Of a stretch of 27,152 bases of DNA, positions 19,768 through 27,152 are shown piece by piece. The notes below the pieces were generated by a model. That model was given only the letters and a program-made list of their open reading frames with translations. It searched no databases and was not told the DNA's origin. The translations under genes were made by a program, and so were the position numbers. Location: the IMG/VR virus record IMGVR_UViG_3300033141_004135. The stretch is one strand, 5' to 3'. The stretch is from an uncultured virus (IMG/VR IMGVR_UViG_3300033141_004135). Taxonomy: Duplodnaviria; Heunggongvirae; Uroviricota; Caudoviricetes. Within the stretch, counting starts at the first letter, position 1; each line of letters starts with the position of its first letter.

Positions 19768-20158
19768 TTTCTAAGAACCTCTGGCGTTGGTTTTTAACAT
19801 GGAGTAAGAAATCATACATGTTTACTGTTCTCTTATGCATTATTGTTTTTAGATGAAGCGAGAATTCTCCACATCTCTTACAAAGATAGAATATGTAGGT
19901 CACTCCTTTAAAGGAATAATAAGTTGGAGATTTCCCGCAGATATAACAATGTCGACATTTTCTGTAGGATTTCCTAAGCTTTTTGGGGTATATTCCTCTA
20001 AATGCTGAGAGGATTCCCTCTATCATATAATTTTCGATGGAGTAAAAATAGTTTTCCCCCATCTTCAATACGAAGAGACAATCACGGCAATACAATTTTT
20101 CTTCTGGTTTTCTGATCGTCTCTTCGTTGATTGTTTTTTTACAAACCATGCATTTCAT
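19757..20158 (-). CDS. Zinc-finger family 2 paralog (7/7)
   Basis: CMVC..YCRDC..GENYF..CYIC..LCKRCGEF. Confidence 0.87.
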   Translation of the reverse strand: MKCMVCKKTINEETIRKPEEKLYCRDCLFVLKMGENYFYSIENYMIEGILSAFRGIYPKKLRKSYRKCRHCYICGKSPTYYSFKGVTYIFYLCKRCGEFSLHLKTIMHKRTVNMYDFLLHVKNQRQRFLENEM

Positions 20159-20831
20159 TTTTCATGATTTTGATGTGATTTACGAGTTTTTCAGCTGTTG
20201 TGGGAGTTAGACCCGGACAGCTGTTTAACTCGATTAAATAAAAAAGATGATCGTGAATTCCAACGTCCATTCCTACAAAATGGACGTTTATTTTATTAAT
20301 GATTTTTTTGCAGAAATATTCTAATTTGGAGTTTAAAATGGTGACGTACTTACACGTCTTAATGTTCTTATAAAGAGGAGTATAGCATTTTGATCTCGGG
20401 ATCTTTTTCTTAGTGCTGATTACTCCGAGTTTAGTGATTAGAACCCGATATTCCTTTTCGAATGGGATGAAGATTTGGAAGTACTCATCCTGTGAAAAGG
20501 ATAGATCCTTGATCTCGGAGTACAGATAAAACCCGATGCCCTCGGCTTTTGATTCGAATCGATGTTTAACGACGAGTAGTTGATCATCTGGAGTTCCGAG
20601 TAGATCTTCGATGCTATAGAACGTCGGTGGATGGAGTATCTGTAGAGAGTCTAATGTCTGGTTCATTCTTATTTTATCTTTAATCCATTCGATGTATGGA
20701 TTAAAGATAAAAAAAATAGAAGATTTAGGATCTACGAAGTCTGATCTGGTGTTGATCAAGACGTCCTCAATGAAAAACCGTTTGAGGAGTTTGATCGATC
20801 TACTCCAGATCTTAGTAGGTATTATGATCAT
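20139..20831 (-). CDS. ATP-grasp amidoligase (RimK/YheCD-like)
   Basis: VVK..., FQIFIPFEKEYRV, FVGMDVG, YLIELNSCPGL (ExN motif). Confidence 0.85.
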   Translation of the reverse strand: MIIIPTKIWSRSIKLLKRFFIEDVLINTRSDFVDPKSSIFFIFNPYIEWIKDKIRMNQTLDSLQILHPPTFYSIEDLLGTPDDQLLVVKHRFESKAEGIGFYLYSEIKDLSFSQDEYFQIFIPFEKEYRVLITKLGVISTKKKIPRSKCYTPLYKNIKTCKYVTILNSKLEYFCKKIINKINVHFVGMDVGIHDHLFYLIELNSCPGLTPTTAEKLVNHIKIMKNEMHGL

Positions 20832-20834
20832 CGC

Positions 20835-21557
20835 CTATTTTTTCCACCATTTTTTCTTACTTTTGGTGGTGGAAAGAGGCGTATAATCATAGTACTTCCA
20901 GCCACCATATTTATATACGTAAGTGTATTTTTTCTCCTCTGGCTTATGTAGTCGTTTCGGTCCAGATCTCTTTAAGAGATATAGTCCTTCATCTATTTCT
21001 GTTTGCTCACCGAAATAGCTGAGATCTGAACCGTAGATCCCTTCTCCATCTATGTAACCGAACTCACCGCTCGTCTTGAGGAGATATATTTTATTTTCTC
21101 TCCTATCGTATACAACGATAACACCGTAGAATGAATCATCGAAAGTAGAGTAGAAATTAAGAATCCCCACTTTCTCTATTATGTAGGCGATGGCGTATGA
21201 ATCGGATACGCCCACTTTCCTACACCCGAGTAATTTGGCGTAATCATAAGCCTTTGTGAATATGCCGTTATGAGCAATGACATATCGCCCAAGACAGATC
21301 GGTTGAGTATTTTTTATTGAGATCTTGCCGTGAGACTTCCTCCTATAATGAAGGATATAGGGGGGAGTCAAGTCTTCGTATATTTCACCGCTGTACTCCA
21401 AGCCGTCCTCTACTGTTTTGTAGAGGACGTTTTTATCATGTACATATGCTCCGAATCCATCACCACCGTTAGTAGTGATTAATTCAAAGCTCATGATATA
21501 TAGGTCCTCACGAGTAAGAGGAAACCTCTTACTCACATTTACAAAAATTCTGCACAT
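20835..21557 (-). CDS. Class II (Ntn) glutamine amidotransferase
   Basis: N-terminal MC, DGFG, HYRRKSHG, NTQP, AHNG, SDS. Confidence 0.9.
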   Translation of the reverse strand: MCRIFVNVSKRFPLTREDLYIMSFELITTNGGDGFGAYVHDKNVLYKTVEDGLEYSGEIYEDLTPPYILHYRRKSHGKISIKNTQPICLGRYVIAHNGIFTKAYDYAKLLGCRKVGVSDSYAIAYIIEKVGILNFYSTFDDSFYGVIVVYDRRENKIYLLKTSGEFGYIDGEGIYGSDLSYFGEQTEIDEGLYLLKRSGPKRLHKPEEKKYTYVYKYGGWKYYDYTPLSTTKSKKKWWKK

Positions 21558-21577
21558 TTTTATCTTTTTTTTTATGA

Positions 21578-22840
21578 TTAGATGATCTTGAATTTTTCCA
21601 AAACTATCCTAAGGAATCTGTTGACATTCCCCTCAAGACAGTTGAAAAATAAGAATGATCTTAATGATCTAGAAAATCCTATCGAGTATGGAGATGTATT
21701 CCCTACACCGAAGGATTTCCTAACTATCTTGATTGTTAGATCCTTCTCCTTAAATACGCCGTCTTCATCACGGCTGTATATGGATCTAACAAACATTTCA
21801 TCCCCATAATATTCTATCTTATCGGAGATGAAAATTGACATCGTCGTCGATGCTTTAGATATCGGATCATCTCCATCTCTGACTCTCACACCGTATAAAA
21901 CGGTATTTTCTGGTGTGAGAATTTCCCTTTTAGCTTTTCTCCAGAGATCAACGATCTCGTTGATCGGTTCCATATAATCGTCCATATTTACGATTATATG
22001 GGGTTTTCCTTTCTTCAATGAAGATGATGCATTGTATCCGAAATTTTCGAATACATCATAACTCATCTTTTTCCCTCTCTCTATAAGAGAGAAAAGAGAT
22101 AAGATGTATCCGTTAAATCGAGGATACGGTGAACCCCACTTCATCATTCTGAGTATGTTTTGTTTCGCATGCTGGTATACTAGCCAGTACGCATCTCCCC
22201 AGTCTTTATCTTCGTTCAAATCACGAAGAAGAGAGAATATCTCTGGGGAGGTTTTTAGTTTTCTCCAGTACTCAGCTATCAACGATACTATGGCGAATCC
22301 GCCTCTAAGATGTAGAGGCGAAGAGATAAAGGAGTATGGTACCCTAAATTCAAACCCATGGCTTTTTGATCTCACCATTGAGTTTGAATCTATGACACCA
22401 TAGCAGTAATCCGATCTTACTACCCTCTTGTACAGTTCCTCGGAGGGTATTAAGCCCCATATTATGGGGATGAAATTTTCAACCAATAAATGGGAGATAA
22501 CTTTAATCGATTTGCAGTTTAACGGCTTACAATTACCTCCCATGTGTATGTGGCATCCAATAGGTTGTCCGTTATAAAAAGCTCCAGAACGGAGCCAAAG
22601 GTTCTCTCTATTCTCTTTTATGAATATTTTCTTCAGAGTGTAGAGTAGAACCTCTACATTATGAGTAAGACCTACAATCCGAGTATGATTGCTCGGATGA
22701 GGTCTTAACTCCAATGGAGTTCCTGCTCCATCGCACCCGATTGGTTCGTGCGTAGAGCAGAAATCCAAGTCATCTCTGGCACTATAGATAGAGCCAGACC
22801 TATTCAATATAAGGAATTCTGGATCGCATCCAATTAACAT
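21578..22840 (-). CDS. phiEco32-like COOH-NH2 ligase type 2 (glutamine synthetase/gamma-GCS-fold amidoligase)
   Basis: LIGCDPEF, IGCDG...LELRP, GCHIHMG, RSKSHGFEFR. Confidence 0.88.
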   Translation of the reverse strand: MLIGCDPEFLILNRSGSIYSARDDLDFCSTHEPIGCDGAGTPLELRPHPSNHTRIVGLTHNVEVLLYTLKKIFIKENRENLWLRSGAFYNGQPIGCHIHMGGNCKPLNCKSIKVISHLLVENFIPIIWGLIPSEELYKRVVRSDYCYGVIDSNSMVRSKSHGFEFRVPYSFISSPLHLRGGFAIVSLIAEYWRKLKTSPEIFSLLRDLNEDKDWGDAYWLVYQHAKQNILRMMKWGSPYPRFNGYILSLFSLIERGKKMSYDVFENFGYNASSSLKKGKPHIIVNMDDYMEPINEIVDLWRKAKREILTPENTVLYGVRVRDGDDPISKASTTMSIFISDKIEYYGDEMFVRSIYSRDEDGVFKEKDLTIKIVRKSFGVGNTSPYSIGFSRSLRSFLFFNCLEGNVNRFLRIVLEKFKII

Positions 22841-22882
22841 GATTATTTATGATGATTTTTTTTTGATTAATATAATAAATGT

Positions 22883-23197
22883 GATGAAAAAAAGTATTGG
22901 AGGGATGCGAACATCCTCCAATTGAACTGGGGGATAATGGTAAGATCCGTAAAGAAAATGGACCTCACTCCTCTTAAGATCCGACCCTACATCGACCTCA
23001 TCATTTCCTCGACATCAACATCCCCAACCCTCATCTCTACCTCCTGAGTCTTACGTGTATACACACTGCTCTTGTAGAGTGAAAGGAATTTGGGGACTTT
23101 TGCAGCGCACTACCTTTAGCTAAGATGCAGAATCGGGTCTACGCCCCATAGGAGTGATTGCGGAGTATGGAGTAAGTCTCCAACCTTCGCCACTCCT
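22883..23197 (-). ncRNA. Putative structured ncRNA, motif A copy 1 (unassigned family)
   Basis: Homologous to 24217-24431 (25-nt identical core, compensatory stems, frame-breaking indels); ends in a UUCG hairpin plus T-tract. Confidence 0.7.
22887..22922 (-). terminator. Hairpin (ATTGGAGGATG-TTCG-CATCCCTCCAAT) plus T7 tract
   Basis: GC-rich stem, UUCG loop, oligo-T; repeated at 24221-24256. Confidence 0.6.
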
Positions 23198-23199
23198 TT

Positions 23200-23394
23200 T
23201 CAGATCATCAATTCGAGATCTTCAGCATCGAAGAATTCGATGATTCTTCTTTTTTCCGGGATGATCACGCTTTCTACATTGGGAAAACGTGATATCCGTC
23301 GAAGAAGATCTCGAAGGTCCTCTTCCTTTATCTTTATGTCGATGTACTCTACCCCATCGGTAAAGTACTCCGACAATTTTATCTTAATTAGCAT
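23200..23394 (-). CDS. Hypothetical protein, 64 aa
   Basis: MLIKIKLSEYF...; ATG 23394 avoids overlap with 23423-23611. Confidence 0.65.
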   Translation of the reverse strand: MLIKIKLSEYFTDGVEYIDIKIKEEDLRDLLRRISRFPNVESVIIPEKRRIIEFFDAEDLELMI

Positions 23395-23422
23395 GATTAA
23401 GTAGAAAAAAAAAAGATTATTA

Positions 23423-23611
23423 TTATTTTTTGATAATTGCATTAATCTCCTTCCAACAATTACGGCAAGCCCAGATTTCTTTTCCTTCTCTAATCTCCTC
23501 GAAGTGAAACCTCTCTTGATCTGCACCTCGTGGATCTGACGAGGCACAGTACTGAACTTGCCAATTGGGGCAGTTTGTACATGTCAACGTTCGGATGATT
23601 CCAGTATCCAT
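23423..23611 (-). CDS. Small Cys-rich protein
   Basis: CTNC..YC..ACRNC; GAGGTGA SD. Confidence 0.7.
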   Translation of the reverse strand: MDTGIIRTLTCTNCPNWQVQYCASSDPRGADQERFHFEEIREGKEIWACRNCWKEINAIIKK

Positions 23612-23625
23612 TTTTTTTTATCACC

Positions 23626-23778
23626 TCATATTGCGAATACATCGATCCATCTCCTCCCACAAGAAAGACAGAGGAGATTGGCGTGTTTAACGTCATCGAT
23701 CGAATCTACCTTTATTAAAAAGGTAGATGAAGATCCGCATTTTTCACAATTTAAAGTTATGTGGTTTACATTTATCAT
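23626..23778 (-). CDS. Small zinc-ribbon protein, 50 aa
   Basis: MINVNHITLNCEKCGSS...LLCLSCGRRW; ATGA overlap with the upstream gene; not in the ORF track. Confidence 0.65.
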   Translation of the reverse strand: MINVNHITLNCEKCGSSSTFLIKVDSIDDVKHANLLCLSCGRRWIDVFAI

Positions 23779-24098
23779 GGTTTCTCACCCCTCATGAATG
23801 GGGGAGTCACCCTCCATATGAATTCCTCGCAGATTGTTTTGTTTATTTTCAGCGTTTTGTTATACTCTTTGGCGAATCTTCGCCAGAGTTTAAACAATTT
23901 TCTATGGATTCTATCTGTATACAATCCATAGCGTTTAAACTCTTGCATTATTTTCTTTTTCGAGTATTCGATGGGACCTTCTCTGCATAAGGCGGTGGTG
24001 ATCATTCTCTTAATCACTTTTGCATGTTCACGATGGAAATCAGCCTCTCTGCTCCGCACAAAAGTCATATATTTTTCATAAATTTTATCTGACAACAT
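23775..24098 (-). CDS. Hypothetical basic protein
   Basis: 107-aa ORF preceded by structured leader B. Confidence 0.7.
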   Translation of the reverse strand: MLSDKIYEKYMTFVRSREADFHREHAKVIKRMITTALCREGPIEYSKKKIMQEFKRYGLYTDRIHRKLFKLWRRFAKEYNKTLKINKTICEEFIWRVTPPFMRGEKP

Positions 24099-24223
24099 GG
24101 TTTCCCCATGCTGATCGATTTGATCAGCATGGGGCTATAATGACTATGGATTCTACCCGCCCACCCCATCCCCGACCGCCATTTCATCCCCCATGATCTA
24201 ACTGATCATGGGTCTGGATGAAA
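24096..24223 (-). promoter_or_regulatory. Leader motif B copy 1: hairpin / G-quadruplex / hairpin / AAACC-ATG
   Basis: Hairpin 24190-24212, GGGGATGGGGTGGGCGGG (24156-24173, minus strand), 13-bp hairpin 24104-24134. Confidence 0.6.
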
Positions 24224-24431
24224 AAAAATATTGGAGGGATGCGAACATCCTCCGATCTGATGAGGGGATAATGATAGGATCCTAAGAAAATGCGGATCTC
24301 ACTTCTCAGCTTAGAAGAGATGGTAATCCTGCCTATCTCGGTCTTAGGGATCGATCTCTTTTTTAGCCTAAGCTCCCTCAGAGAAGTGATTGCGGAACAC
24401 GGAGTAGATCTCCAATGCTTCGCCACTTCTC
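24217..24431 (-). ncRNA. Putative structured ncRNA, motif A copy 2
   Basis: Same architecture as 22883-23197 with a shorter variable domain. Confidence 0.7.
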
Positions 24432-24464
24432 GTCTAGTTGTAGTTGGAGTATGTACGAATGCAT

Positions 24465-24680
24465 TTAGCATTTCTCTGGATTTTCTCTCTCTAATGATTT
24501 CTTCTCCTTTGGAGAGAGTAGAAACGGATAGGAGTCATAGAGAGAAATTCCGCAATAGTCACACCGCAACTCTTCCGAGCCATCATCAAAGAGTAGAAGA
24601 GTTGCTCTTTTTCTGTGACAAAAGATACAATATAATCCATTGAATTTATATTTACATTTTTTACTTTCCATTTTCATCAC
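24465..24680 (-). CDS. Small zinc-finger protein
   Basis: YCIFCH ... RCDYCG. Confidence 0.7.
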   Translation of the reverse strand: MMKMESKKCKYKFNGLYCIFCHRKRATLLLFDDGSEELRCDYCGISLYDSYPFLLSPKEKKSLERENPEKC

Positions 24681-24691
24681 TTTAATATTTA

Positions 24692-24744
24692 TTTAATCTC
24701 TTATGAGAGTAGATACTAGGTGTCTACTCTTATAAGAGATTAAA
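24692..24744. repeat. Intergenic palindrome family C, copy 1
   Basis: 25-bp arms with 2 mismatches and a 3-nt centre; core AGTAGAT-N7-GTCTACT. Confidence 0.9.
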
Positions 24745-24765
24745 CTATAAAATAAGGAAAAAAAA

Positions 24766-25230
24766 TTATATATTTAGTAAATCTGGGAAATTGCATACCA
24801 ATTTTGGATAGAATAATGTTATTGCATGTTGGAGCTCATCATCTGAGCTCCTATCGTAGATTAAATAATCCAACTCATAGTATTTTTTACAGTTATCAGT
24901 TGGAACATACATAAACGCCTTTATTACTTCTCCGGTTTTTCTCTCTACGAGAACCTCTTCTCTTTTGAAGAGATCGTTGTGGGTTCCTTCTAAGAAGTCA
25001 ATGTTGTCTAATGCTTCCATTGGAACCTCCGAGTACATTAAGGTCCAGAAATGATGATCCTTCAATTCGTAAGTGAACGAGTATTGATCTACGTAAGGAT
25101 GTAGGATCCTCACATGGTCGAGTACTTTCACTGGCTCTGCTGGAAATCCAGAAAGCCAATGAAAGATTGAAGAGTCATTTGCTACAAGGCGATATGTTTT
25201 CTCGTCTTTATAGGCTTTTCTTATCCTCAT
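24766..25230 (-). CDS. Gamma-glutamylcyclotransferase/AIG2-like protein
   Basis: EVPMEALDNIDFLEG...LFKREEVLVERKTGEVIKAFMYV matches the GGCT-like LDxxEG..Y/FxR..V..AxxY pattern; the N-terminal YGSL motif is not evident. Confidence 0.65.
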   Translation of the reverse strand: MRIRKAYKDEKTYRLVANDSSIFHWLSGFPAEPVKVLDHVRILHPYVDQYSFTYELKDHHFWTLMYSEVPMEALDNIDFLEGTHNDLFKREEVLVERKTGEVIKAFMYVPTDNCKKYYELDYLIYDRSSDDELQHAITLFYPKLVCNFPDLLNI

Positions 25231-25262
25231 CTTTTAAACCTTAGGTTATTTTTGATTATATG

Positions 25263-25306
25263 ATCTTTTATCTGAATAGATCTAATCATCTACTCAGATA
25301 GAAGAT
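25263..25306. repeat. Intergenic palindrome family C, copy 2
   Basis: 19-bp arms with 2 mismatches; AATAGAT-N6-ATCTACT. Confidence 0.85.
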
Positions 25307-25354
25307 GATATAAAAAAAGAGATTTATTTTTTGGAGTATTTACCTATGATCACC

Positions 25355-25409
25355 ATTTATCTTTCCATAAGAGTAGACGCCGAGTATCTACTATTATGGA
25401 AAGATAAAT
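25355..25409. repeat. Intergenic palindrome family C, copy 3
   Basis: 26-bp arms with 3 mismatches; AGTAGAC-N7-ATCTACT. Confidence 0.9.
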
Positions 25410-25437
25410 TAAGTAAGATAAAATAAAAAGAGATTAT

Positions 25438-25779
25438 TTATTTGAAGTATTTTTTGTTGATTTCTTTGATCATCGGTCCTACCTCTCTGAGGTAGGCTAT
25501 GGTATTTTTTATCTCCTCTATTATAGAGGAGATACCGTGGTCTTTTTCATCATCGCCGTAGTGGTTGTAATCCCACCCAACCACATAGTGATCCGGAGGG
25601 ATTACATTTTCGAGTAGCAACATGTTAACTGATTCTCCGTCTCCATTATAAGTGATCCCCCCATGTACTGGGAGATCTCTTATATTCAAGTAAGAGAGAT
25701 CTTCCTCCATACCGAGATATACCCGGTATGGGTTTTCTAAGATTACGGCATAGATATTCCTATCTCTTAGGATTATCAA
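25438..25779 (-). CDS. Conserved phage-type hypothetical protein (VHGG-TY / GWD-H-GD pattern)
   Basis: LPVHGGITYNG ... VVGWDYNHYGD. Confidence 0.75.
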   Translation of the reverse strand: MIILRDRNIYAVILENPYRVYLGMEEDLSYLNIRDLPVHGGITYNGDGESVNMLLLENVIPPDHYVVGWDYNHYGDDEKDHGISSIIEEIKNTIAYLREVGPMIKEINKKYFK

Positions 25780-25781
25780 AT

Positions 25782-26198
25782 CTAATCACCATTTGACTTT
25801 TTGAATTGGATGCTTGGAAAATATTCCAAGCCTCTCTCTGGAGTAGAGGAACATGCCTCCTCAAACTCCAGATCAAACTCTCCGTATCCAAATATTTCGA
25901 GTTTGAATTGGCTATCTTTCTCGAGTATTCTAAAATACTCGGTTCCTGCAGCAAAGGAATTTCGGTACCCCTTAAATACAAGGATCCCATTTGCAGATAT
26001 TGTGTATAATCCTTTGCCGCTTGCTGTCGTATAGCTGATGCTGTTGTCTTCAAACCAGAACCAGCCCATAACACTACTTGGGCTATAGCCTTGATCCCTT
26101 AATTCATAGTAGTAATTTATATGCTCCTCGCCAATTTTGGCGAGTATTTGGTAAACTTCCTTACCTTTCCCATCTTTTATTCTAAATTTTGTTTTCAT
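25782..26198 (-). CDS. Hypothetical protein
   Basis: 138-aa ORF; AGGTGA SD. Confidence 0.75.
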   Translation of the reverse strand: MKTKFRIKDGKGKEVYQILAKIGEEHINYYYELRDQGYSPSSVMGWFWFEDNSISYTTASGKGLYTISANGILVFKGYRNSFAAGTEYFRILEKDSQFKLEIFGYGEFDLEFEEACSSTPERGLEYFPSIQFKKSNGD

Positions 26199-26231
26199 AA
26201 AAATATATCACCTTTTTGGGGCATTATCTAC

Positions 26232-26275
26232 CCCCTTATCTGGATAGATTGAGTAGTATCTACCCAGATAAGAGG
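26232..26275. repeat. Intergenic palindrome family C, copy 4
   Basis: 18-bp arms with 2 mismatches; GATAGAT-N8-ATCTACC. Confidence 0.85.
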
Positions 26276-26296
26276 ATAAATAATTAAAAAAAAATC

Positions 26297-26656
26297 TTAT
26301 ATCCTAACGTAAAATATATCCCGGTAAGGACCGGGATCGTAAATATTATCTCCGTTAATATTCGAGTAAATGCATATCCCACATCTTATATGACAGCATT
26401 GACACATACATGAGTATAACTCAGTTTCAATCCTCAGTTTGAGCCCTCTCTCATCAAAGACGAGAGAGAAGTCAAAGATAGTATTCTCTCTTATGGATAA
26501 TCTCCAGCAACCTTCTTTCTTTATTTTTGTTGCTGTGATATATACCTCATCGAGAGTGAGTAACCCACTCTCGATTGCATCCTCGAGGCAGTAGGCTATT
26601 GCATCTGCAATATCCTCCACCTTTGTAGAGGACAATAGCTCAGTGAGACTGTACAT
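26297..26656 (-). CDS. Hypothetical protein with a Cys-rich C-terminus
   Basis: 119-aa ORF; GGAG upstream. Confidence 0.7.
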   Translation of the reverse strand: MYSLTELLSSTKVEDIADAIAYCLEDAIESGLLTLDEVYITATKIKKEGCWRLSIRENTIFDFSLVFDERGLKLRIETELYSCMCQCCHIRCGICIYSNINGDNIYDPGPYRDIFYVRI

Positions 26657-26837
26657 ATTCTCTCCTCCACATAGAGATTGAACTGTGTTTATACTCCGAG
26701 TGAGTACTACAGATGTAGTACTCTATATCCTTATCCTCTGCAAAGTCTACTACCTCTTTGCAGAGGTAGTAGAACTTACAATTACCACAGTTAAGTGGCA
26801 ACCGAGTACTATAAGGATGAAGTCTGAAAATTATCAT
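26640..26837 (-). CDS. Small Cys-rich protein
   Basis: CGNC..LC..IC; preceded by leader B copy 2. Confidence 0.65.
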   Translation of the reverse strand: MIIFRLHPYSTRLPLNCGNCKFYYLCKEVVDFAEDKDIEYYICSTHSEYKHSSISMWRREYVQSH

Positions 26838-26945
26838 GGTTTCTACATGCAGATCGAATTGATATAATGCATGTAGCCGTAAAAAGCCCTCCCACCCACC
26901 CTCCTTCCTCCTTCCTTACTCCCCATGACGGTTCCTCGTCATGGG
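26835..26945 (-). promoter_or_regulatory. Leader motif B copy 2
   Basis: Hairpin 26922-26945, GGGTGGGTGGGAGGG (26887-26901, minus strand), hairpin 26843-26876, AAACC-ATG. Confidence 0.6.
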
Positions 26946-27087
26946 TTAGAGTAGATATTAATATATGGATGGGATCGAGATTGCTCATGGCAAAATCTAC
27001 CCATCCTAAAAACGGAGTATACACTCCGACATGCTTACTTCGAAGGAGTATAACTCGGAGTATGCATGTCGGAGTAGGACCTGATTT

Positions 27088-27152
27088 GATCGATTTCGAT
27101 CGCCGATGATCGATTTTGATCATTTTGATCATTTTCGATCATTTTGATCATT
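27088..27152. repeat. Tandem 9-10 bp GATC(G)ATTTT repeats, running off the window
   Basis: GATC at 27088, 27098, 27108, 27118, 27127, 27137, 27146. Confidence 0.85.

Follow-up and report, generated by a model that had tools for sequence, protein, structure and literature searches.

In the stretch of DNA analyzed here (the window: 27,152 nucleotides (nt) of an uncultured tailed virus, Caudoviricetes, IMG/VR record IMGVR_UViG_3300033141_004135), a non-coding unit of about 130 nt occurs twice on the minus strand, directly ahead of two orphan genes. The two copies, designated A (26945-26835) and B (24212-24096), have their parts in one order. A 9-bp hairpin is followed by a four-tract G motif of the kind that defines a G-quadruplex (G4), then by a second hairpin, AAACC, and the ATG of the orphan gene. 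The module is real, non-random, structurally constrained, duplicated, and non-coding. We favor, tentatively, the reading that A and B are a duplicated cis-acting expression cassette, heading orphan-gene units in a variable, end-proximal early region of the viral genome.

Architecture of the two copies

An earlier note on this DNA had described two minus-strand units of hairpin, G4, hairpin, and AAACC-ATG, and every element that it listed is found in its place. All coordinates in this section refer to features of the minus strand. Copy A is preceded by an AT-rich box, CCATATATTAAT (26957..26968), a TATA-like candidate promoter element that ends about 23 nt upstream of the center of hairpin 1 and aligns without gaps to the corresponding box of copy B. 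Hairpin 1 (26922..26945; CCCATGACG/AGGAAC/CGTCATGGG) is a 9-bp perfect palindrome with a 6-nt loop, and a 31-nt piece containing it has a predicted RNA folding free energy of -16.6 kcal/mol. A purine-rich, GGAGG-rich spacer of 20 nt (26902-26921) leads to the G4 motif GGGTGGGTGGGAGGG (26887..26901), in which the loops are T, T, and A (1, 1, 1) and the G4Hunter score is 1.92. Ten nucleotides further on, hairpin 2 (26843..26876) pairs CTACATGCA with TGCATGTAG around a 16-nt loop that holds CATTATAT and ATCAATTCGATC. AAACC and the start codon follow (26835..26842), and the ATG at 26837 opens a 65-residue orphan open reading frame (ORF), 26837-26640.

The AT-rich box of copy B, CAATATTTTTTT, is also the oligo-T end (CAATA plus T8, 24221..24233) of a structured RNA-like element that lies upstream. 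Hairpin 1 (24190..24212; CCCATGATC/AGTTA/GATCATGGG) has a 5-nt loop and can be extended outward through TTCATCC/GGATGAA. It is separated by 16 nt from the G4 motif GGGGATGGGGTGGGCGGG (24156..24173; loops AT, T, and C, that is 2, 1, 1; G4Hunter 2.2), which in turn is separated by 21 nt from hairpin 2 (24104..24134; CCCCATGCTGATC/AAATC/GATCAGCATGGGG), a 13-bp perfect palindrome with a predicted RNA folding free energy of -25.8 kcal/mol. AAACC and the start codon occupy 24096..24103, and the ATG at 24098 opens a 107-residue orphan ORF, 24098-23775.

The copies have the same orientation, which is that of nearly all genes of the window, and the AAACC-to-ATG distance is 5 nt in each. A word at the center of hairpin 2, ATCAAWTCGATC, occurs in the window only in A and B. 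As the earlier note had remarked, a Shine-Dalgarno sequence of the GAGGT type is missing ahead of both start codons; copy B has just GGGG, located within the 3' arm of hairpin 2. T runs were not found after hairpin 1 or hairpin 2, which are followed by G-rich DNA and by AAACC-ATG, respectively, and the T runs of the neighborhood lie upstream of the module. The four hairpins of A and B are absent from the nine terminator-like sites found, and we therefore do not class them as intrinsic terminators.

Evidence that the module is not a product of chance

We scanned both strands of the window for canonical G4 motifs, defined as four tracts of three or more G residues separated by loops of 1-7 nt. 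The tracts of A and B are the only two found, where first-order Markov simulations average 0.023 motifs and not one of 1000 runs produced two or more; the earlier note had called such G runs striking in AT-rich DNA. Even three G3 tracts with loops of 1-4 nt occur nowhere in the window outside A and B. The two copies also hold the two highest G4Hunter scores, with the third, 1.44, falling in another non-coding element of the same region. The word GAAACCATG occurs three times on the minus strand, compared to 0.12 expected; the third occurrence falls where a stop and a start overlap (ATGA), preceded by an ordinary GAGGGGTGA ribosome site.

Comparison of A to B shows which features have been retained. 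Among 18 comparable stem pairs, 13 are identical and five differ by double compensatory changes, while none shows a single-sided change; the compensatory changes that the earlier note had seen in hairpin 2 around the shared center word are thus confirmed, with no pair broken. All 40 stem pairs of the two copies are Watson-Crick pairs, with no G.U pair among them. The spacers, in contrast, cannot be aligned between copies and are unequal: the one after hairpin 1 is 20 nt in A and 16 nt in B, and the one after the G4 is 10 nt in A and 21 nt in B. Loop lengths also differ, in hairpin 1 (6 vs. 5 nt) as in hairpin 2 (16 vs. 5 nt). Both G4 motifs contain the core GGGTGGGYGGG, and the fourth G tract lies 3' of this core in A, 5' of it in B.

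On this comparison, A and B are best regarded as old paralogues that have retained their four G tracts, both stems, and a spacing of 5 nt ahead of the start codon, and hence not as two independent origins of a G4. Paralogy by itself would allow a functionless module, in which one G-rich, hairpin-bearing spacer was copied along with a gene cassette and what similarity remains is residual. A 29-nt stretch that includes AAACCATG is 86% identical between the copies, the region is an orphan-gene zone prone to shuffling, palindromes are common throughout the genome, and related viruses lack the module, all as such an account would have it. Yet the spacers have diverged while the four G tracts, both stems, and the start-codon distance have not, and the placement of the fourth tract on opposite sides of the core points to selection for four tracts rather than to residual sequence. 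We consider a functionless duplicate improbable.

Folding calculations agree with the comparison of stems. Copy B folds far better than its shuffled versions (z = -5.0; 0 of 200 shuffles as good), and copy A does so to a lesser degree (z = -2.0; 9 of 200 as good). In G4-aware ViennaRNA folding, hairpin 1, the G4, and hairpin 2 are predicted as three separate modules at 37 and 60 C, and the G4 of copy A is predicted as a separate module at 37, 60, and 80 C. A search with the covariance models of Rfam 15 found no match overlapping A or B at E values up to 5; the Rfam matches listed elsewhere in the window are look-alikes built on long hairpins and score far below the gathering scores.

A natural variant of the module

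A related virus population was found twice, as metagenome contig L007 (98% protein identity) and as contigs of sequencing run X3; the relatives that carry the homologous locus are all about 96-98% identical, and base changes within a G4 are available for copy B only. The copy B G4 of L007 reads GGGGATGGGGTGGGTGGG. All tracts are intact, with one loop base changed (C>T) and one flanking base changed (c>a), while hairpin 2, AAACC, and the ATG are unchanged. Conservation of the G tracts at homologous loci, the lack of which the earlier note had named as refuting, therefore holds for copy B in a near-identical variant; four distant relatives lack the whole early region. Elsewhere in copy B of the variant population, C24210>T in hairpin 1 keeps a G.U pair on the sense strand, and c24220>a breaks just the optional outer extension of that hairpin. 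In copy A, 2 nt are deleted from the loop of hairpin 2 at 26866. The 65-residue ORF behind it has a +6 in-frame insertion at 26834, right after the ATG, and a pair of indels (+1/-1 at 26677/26681) that restores the frame. The 2-nt loop indel, set beside the frame-keeping indels of the ORF, shows the module to be non-coding and the downstream ORFs to be coding.

The same variant bears on whether the G tracts could instead be coding sequence, either as part of a glycine-rich upstream ORF that begins at an ATG in the 3' arm of hairpin 1, translation of which would unfold the structures and be linked to that of the main ORF, or as part of a 107-residue ORF at 27132-26809. The upstream ORF has 27 codons in A, ending in TAG 5 nt before the main ATG, a placement that suits re-initiation; in B it has 13 codons and ends right past the G tract. 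Both begin with MG and read the core as V-G-G in the same frame, and both L007 substitutions are synonymous in that frame (GTC>GTA, GGC>GGT). The synonymous sites, however, are also G4 loop and flank positions, so that the two readings cannot be told apart on L007 evidence, and the c>a change introduces a stop in one upstream reading frame. The two peptides share only MG..VGG, with different lengths and stop positions. The 107-residue ORF is present in public protein sets, but it starts in tandem repeats, and its sole cluster mate is the same virus in another assembly. The -2 indel at 26866 breaks both this ORF and the upstream ORF of A. A coding origin of the tracts is highly improbable, and the ORF at 27132-26809 on the minus strand, which spans terminators as well as both hairpins and the G4 of A, is probably a false gene call.

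The variant also differs by a cassette swap at 24396-25418, where 1021 nt encoding a GGACT-like protein of 154 residues and a 71-residue zinc-ribbon ORF are replaced by 665 unrelated nt. The borders of the swap are a hairpin module of the GTAGAT type and the 5' domain of a structured non-coding element, a case of modular shuffling at repeated intergenic modules.

The virus and its relatives

In public protein sets, the window is found on contigs of about 89.1 kb, of which it forms the orphan-gene-rich end of a tailed virus with a genomic G+C content (GC) of 34%. Sequencing runs that carry the sequence are labeled as marine sediment and hydrothermal vent metagenomes, and no RNA run is among those listed. 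The clamp loader gene (3480-2566) matches archaeal RFC small subunits at 4e-34, vs. 1e-11 for gp44 of T4, and NCBIfam also assigns it to RFC small subunit, at 1e-47, a match that lies under the curated cut-off. Among 120 homologues listed, about 64 unnamed proteins (43-64% identity) come first and archaeal RFCs follow, and no bacterial or phage name appears among the 120. An alignment-based search of GTDB genomes returned 18 loci, the best at 34% identity, all of them cellular RFC or AAA genes. Four IMG/VR relatives have RFC identities of 43-46%, and two of these are complete genomes of about 99 kb and 33% GC. The relatives encode a baseplate J protein, a T4-type terminase, and a family-B polymerase (PolB), which in relative G004 is closest to archaeal and eukaryal PolB. 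The window itself encodes many small zinc-ribbon proteins. These sequence relationships suggest that the virus is quite probably a tailed virus of Archaea.

What the two complete relatives share with the window is restricted to replication genes, two glycosyltransferases, and one other gene, all located below 15300, and the ORFs of 15.3-27.1 kb have no match in either genome. The 107-residue ORF behind copy B matched one homologue, from the 99%-identical variant (1 protein of 4 candidates), and the homologue search for the 65-residue ORF behind copy A found nothing. Because the relatives lack both the early genes and the G-tract motif, the module is lineage-specific, within a region rich in orphan genes. 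Other searches were negative within their scope: megablast of 20000-27152 against phage records and tblastn of a 420-residue ligase against phages found no match, the ligase and the clamp loader as single-protein queries in IMG/VR found no close relatives, and the RNA-like element upstream of copy B gave no match in IMG/VR for a 25-nt word and none in GTDB genomes for a 21-nt word.

Promoter-like surroundings and a proposed mechanism

Each copy is located between a terminator-like end on its upstream side (for B, a hairpin plus T8; for A, CGGAGT..ACTCCG plus T5) and the start codon. Copy B begins 8 nt past the T8 run, which ends a structured non-coding element of about 220 nt (24436-24221). 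Copy A is preceded by a very stable hairpin (z = -6.6), by CGGAGT..ACTCCG and its T5 run, and by a GGATGGG..CCCATCC hairpin. Collinearity of A with B starts at the AT-rich box, not at hairpin 1. In all six intergenic hairpin modules examined, that is A, B, and four others of the region, the AT box ends 21-23 nt before the center of the palindrome. Archaeal promoters of the B recognition element (BRE)/TATA type carry their AT-rich TATA box some 25-30 nt ahead of the site where transcription begins, and 21-23 nt is the spacing expected between an archaeal TATA box and a start site. Sigma-70-like sites are absent from 26945-26838 and from 24223-24099, and the early region as a whole has 9 compared to 14.4 expected. 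Five gene cassettes of the region end in T5-T10 runs with no adjacent hairpin.

From the geometry of these parts we infer a promoter, a start site, an assignment of structures to RNA or DNA, and an effect on expression. The preceding unit would terminate at its oligo-T run, and the AT-rich box that overlaps or follows this run would serve as a TATA-like core promoter. Transcription would start some 22-25 nt onward, inside hairpin 1, which would then be not an RNA hairpin but a DNA palindrome around the start site, acting as an operator or a melting-prone site. The transcript would thus begin with the G-rich tract, which could form a three-tetrad, short-loop G-quadruplex both in the RNA and in the displaced non-template DNA strand. 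The flanking stems may keep the tract free to fold, in keeping with the three separate modules of the G4-aware prediction. Hairpin 2 would lie in the leader, ending 5 nt before a start codon that lacks a Shine-Dalgarno sequence, and together with the G4 would set mRNA stability and ribosome access; the G4 may in addition hold a promoter-proximal bubble open. In Haloferax volcanii, the DNA upstream of start sites is enriched in predicted G4s (PMC12873603), so that archaeal promoter G4s have precedent.

Several observations weigh against a promoter-based cassette of this kind. Perfect palindromes with a stem of at least 9 bp and a loop of 3-16 nt number 27 in the window, compared to 0-5 in 20 Markov simulations, and the hairpins are for this reason less specific to the module than the G4 is. 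Within the AT boxes, the TTTAT-type cores lie at distances from the palindrome centers that differ by as much as 7 nt. A second TATA-like word, CATTATA, ends 24 nt (A) or 36 nt (B) before the ATG, and were it the promoter, the G4 would lie upstream of the promoter. For 109 genes with free upstream DNA, taken from the window and two relatives, the upstream profile shows a G peak like that of a Shine-Dalgarno sequence, and no TATA signal recurs at a set spacing from the start codons. The arms of the hairpins differ between copies yet stay complementary, which fits pairing of a single strand better than a sequence-specific dimeric operator. The three-tract G motif is found in none of the four related records. 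As to the host, the nearest language-model clusters of the clamp loader are clamp loaders of tailed viruses, which does not fix the host domain.

The pairing evidence among these points would suit a module that is an RNA leader throughout, hairpin 1 included, with transcription either beginning at a more distant upstream site or reading through the oligo-T run. Such a leader would protect or process the RNA end, control translation, or modify the polymerase to read through downstream oligo-T terminators, and the many T-run terminators of the early region would need read-through. In both hairpins the arms covary with no constraint on spacing or loop length, the C24210>T change of the variant yields a G.U pair on the sense strand, G4-aware folding of the RNA gives three neat modules, and each of the two copies heads a unit. 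However, the T8 run is just 8 nt from hairpin 1 of B, so that an RNA form of that hairpin requires read-through of T8, and a count of 0 G.U pairs in 40 is unusual for selected RNA helices. Rfam offers no family matching A or B at the E value limit given above, and the parallel to the put and nut RNAs of phages (see below) concerns bacterial polymerase. We consider an all-RNA leader unlikely.

A more specific form of the proposed cassette would make the hairpin/G-quadruplex/hairpin a heat-stable riboregulator or promoter switch that times the early, Shine-Dalgarno-less genes of an archaeal virus. The two flanking clamps would hold a three-tetrad G4 with one-nucleotide loops single-stranded and foldable, and the G4 would sense intracellular potassium ions or a host factor that binds or unwinds G4s. 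This version is distinctly unlikely.

The module may alternatively be read as a structural signal in DNA, namely a replication origin or primer site, a packaging signal, or a recombination hot spot at cassette borders. In the first case, transcription across the non-template G run would leave a stable R-loop or hybrid G4, after the manner of mitochondrial CSBII. A tandem-repeat array at the contig end is no more than 4.3 kb away from the module, its perfect palindromes could extrude as cruciforms, and GATCAAATC is common to the loop of hairpin 2 and the repeat region, although the exact center word ATCAAWTCGATC is not found in the repeats. Three contig ends from two assemblies fall at 24163-24176, inside the G4 of copy B; these breaks may reflect poor sequencing of G-rich DNA, and the two assemblies may share one sample. 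The cassette swap of the variant is bounded by other repeated intergenic modules, but neither A nor B is a border of it. Neither copy has an AT-rich unwinding region or an initiator gene beside it, and the shared orientation and identical 5-nt distance to the start codon make a gene-linked function the natural reading. The replication or packaging signal that the earlier note had offered as an alternative finds little specific support here, and a DNA structural role is quite improbable.

Relationship to known systems

Candidate identities were examined and rejected on several grounds. Hairpin promoters of the N4 type do not fit, since the stems and loops of A and B are too long and the geometry differs between copies. 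Archaeal origin recognition boxes with a G-string were set aside, the copies being direct repeats with no initiator gene or unwinding region adjacent. A switch between the G tract and a hairpin arm was dropped because complementary words occur in B only, not in A, and an RNA thermometer because hairpin 2 of B is still folded at 80 C in the model. A general leaderless architecture is unsupported by the upstream profile of the 109 genes. Recoding of TAG to lengthen ORFs was rejected also; TAG terminates 8 of 56 genes, and genes are densely packed under the standard code as it is.

Pattern scans of IMG/VR returned six loci for CCCATGA..TCATGGG..GGGTGGG and seven for GGGTGGGNGGG..GAAACCATG, all on contigs of 41-65% GC without the rest of the module, and these are attributed to chance. 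One look-alike comes from an unrelated virus contig of 65% GC (L006 3001-3105, the same as L003). A segment of 105 nt there combines a CCCATGAG/CTCATGGG palindrome with a four-tract G motif, another palindrome centered on CATG, and an AAACC-ATG start; in L003/L006, the G4 is followed by a AAACCATG start 60 nt on. It is judged a coincidence, if an odd one, and the palindrome occurs once per record.

Promoter and leader G4s are known in principle. Translational repression by G4s of the 5'-untranslated region (UTR) is known in eukaryotes, and archaeal genomes have been surveyed for G4s (PMC7565180). The G4 motifs of A and B resemble such promoter and leader G4s in being on the sense strand, with short loops, tens of nt from the gene start, within a regulatory interval. 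They differ in being framed by pairing-constrained hairpins and in forming a repeated unit in a virus. The archaeal cases, Haloferax volcanii among them, come from GC-rich genomes in which motifs are frequent, whereas the virus has 34% GC and the window no motif beyond the two. In mitochondria, a hybrid RNA/DNA G4 at LSP-CSBII ends transcription and makes the replication primer. The likeness is that a non-template G run lies shortly past a putative promoter, where nascent RNA and displaced DNA could form a G4 or an R-loop; the difference is that nothing found here marks an origin and that the two copies have one orientation, each coupled to the start of an ORF. The put RNAs of phage HK022, which have two hairpins, modify RNA polymerase so that it reads through terminators. 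Like the put and lambda nut sites, A and B are two copies that head early units, hairpin modules of candidate RNA upstream of several terminators. The put and nut systems differ in using bacterial polymerase with specific sequences and factors and in having no G tract.

The nearest described system is that of the PeSL (promoter-early stem-loop) cassettes of T4-type phages, small mobile repeated units of promoter plus stem-loop that border orphan genes and mediate modular shuffling (PMC2839356, PMC4122927). As described there, those cassettes and the present module are alike in being small composite intergenic units, repeated in one genome and bordering non-essential orphan genes of variable regions, and in combining transcription signals with stem-loops. 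Cassette replacement at the repeats, by which close relatives of the PeSL phages differ, may have a counterpart in the one swap (1021 to 665 nt) seen here. The accounts give PeSL a strong sigma-70-like promoter and a terminator stem-loop; A and B have no such promoter, and their hairpins are not followed by T runs. Further differences are the G4 carried between the hairpins, a host virus that is probably archaeal, and a swap bounded by repeats other than A or B. The module may thus work like PeSL without being a member of that family, given that it lacks the sigma-70 promoter and the terminator stem-loop and that a G4 is present. In the open-access literature, no report was found of a hairpin-framed, repeated G4 unit in a prokaryotic virus; what came closest were surveys and studies of herpesviruses or Haloferax.

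Other features of the region

Of the perfect palindromes counted above, 17 of the 27 are located above 18900, and several lie inside ORFs, including three within the 65-residue ORF at 26702-26773. The same count in two relatives gives 19 and 13, despite about four times the length.

Four long intergenic hairpins of the minus strand (26282-26225, 25409-25355, 25305-25264, and 24745-24692) have arms of 19-25 nt that differ in sequence and a common GTAGA(T/C) apex. Each comes after a T5-T10 run and an AT-rich box and before the next gene. One contains four G.U pairs and is far more stable as the minus strand (-35.2 vs. -20.9 kcal/mol), while another favors the plus strand. It is possible that these hairpins are promoter/operator or processing sites of the early cassettes.

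The structured element that ends in the T8 run upstream of copy B has a paralogue. Both members of the pair (24436-24221 and 23199-22886, minus strand) come right after a stop codon, and the second precedes the ligase gene. They share a 5' domain, in which a stem GUGGCG..CGC-AAU-CAC encloses a GGAGAnnUACUCC hairpin with one compensatory change (A-U to G-C), and a 3' end consisting of a GGAGGAUG-UUCG-CAUCCCUCC hairpin, AAUA, and T7-8. The middles differ by about 100 nt; fold z scores are -2.5 and -4.4, and neither element matches Rfam. A 95-residue ORF over the first is broken in the variant by net +1 indels. The two may be conserved 3'-UTR or small-RNA elements.

The tandem array at the window edge (27107-27152) consists of 4.9 copies of a 9-nt unit, TGATCATTT on the plus strand, and variant contigs continue it with more GATC-bearing repeats. 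Two assemblies of the same virus show a length difference of 36 nt, and their ORF calls differ by one repeat unit. An iteron array and a terminal repeat are two possible identities for it. The window contains 207 GATC sites where 84 are expected, a 2.5-fold excess, while the complete relatives G003 and G004 contain fewer than expected (165 and 211 vs. about 300), and of these G004 encodes a D12-class adenine methyltransferase. CATG is depleted in both relatives, not in the window.

Copies of the hexamer TACTC[CG] number 51 on the minus strand, where about 6 are expected from the composition of that strand, and 16 on the plus strand; they are densest above 13500. Since it occurs in all three frames (13, 16, and 12) and in intergenic DNA (10), it is strand-specific as a DNA or RNA word and does not reflect codons. 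The stable hairpin upstream of A contains four copies, and others are found in the 5' domains of both non-coding elements. The hexamer is not enriched in G004 and is mildly enriched, on one strand only, in G003.

Two gene clusters are predicted from sequence to be peptide-tagging or modification modules of the early region. In the first (22840-20139), a phiEco32-type COOH-NH2 ligase, a class-II glutamine amidotransferase-like protein, and an S6-glutaminyl-transferase-like protein are encoded in a row. In the second (16226-15266), a ThiS-like small protein is encoded near a JAB-domain protein.

Significance of the module

The module is most probably an expression-control cassette. The broader inference of the earlier note, a conserved cis-element, holds to the extent that a selected non-coding element stands before two genes, as supported by the compensatory stems, the four tracts in both copies, the retention of tracts in the variant, and the loop indel; the process that it serves may be translation, transcription, replication, or packaging.

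The regulatory DNA and RNA of archaeal viruses are almost unmapped, and the function of archaeal G-quadruplexes has so far been barely studied, in GC-rich genomes where motifs are common. A window of 34% GC with exactly two G4 motifs, both on the sense strand, framed by hairpins, and at equal distances from start codons, offers a clean background, and the element is short enough to synthesize. If it is not functional, the module would still record the duplication of a cassette within the variable early region of a lineage of viruses that is new. If it is functional, it would be a compact natural part for gene control by a G4 in a prokaryotic virus. Should it prove to be a switch of the kind outlined above, it would be the first G4 with a described control function in any virus of Archaea, and its modular design would be a natural one.

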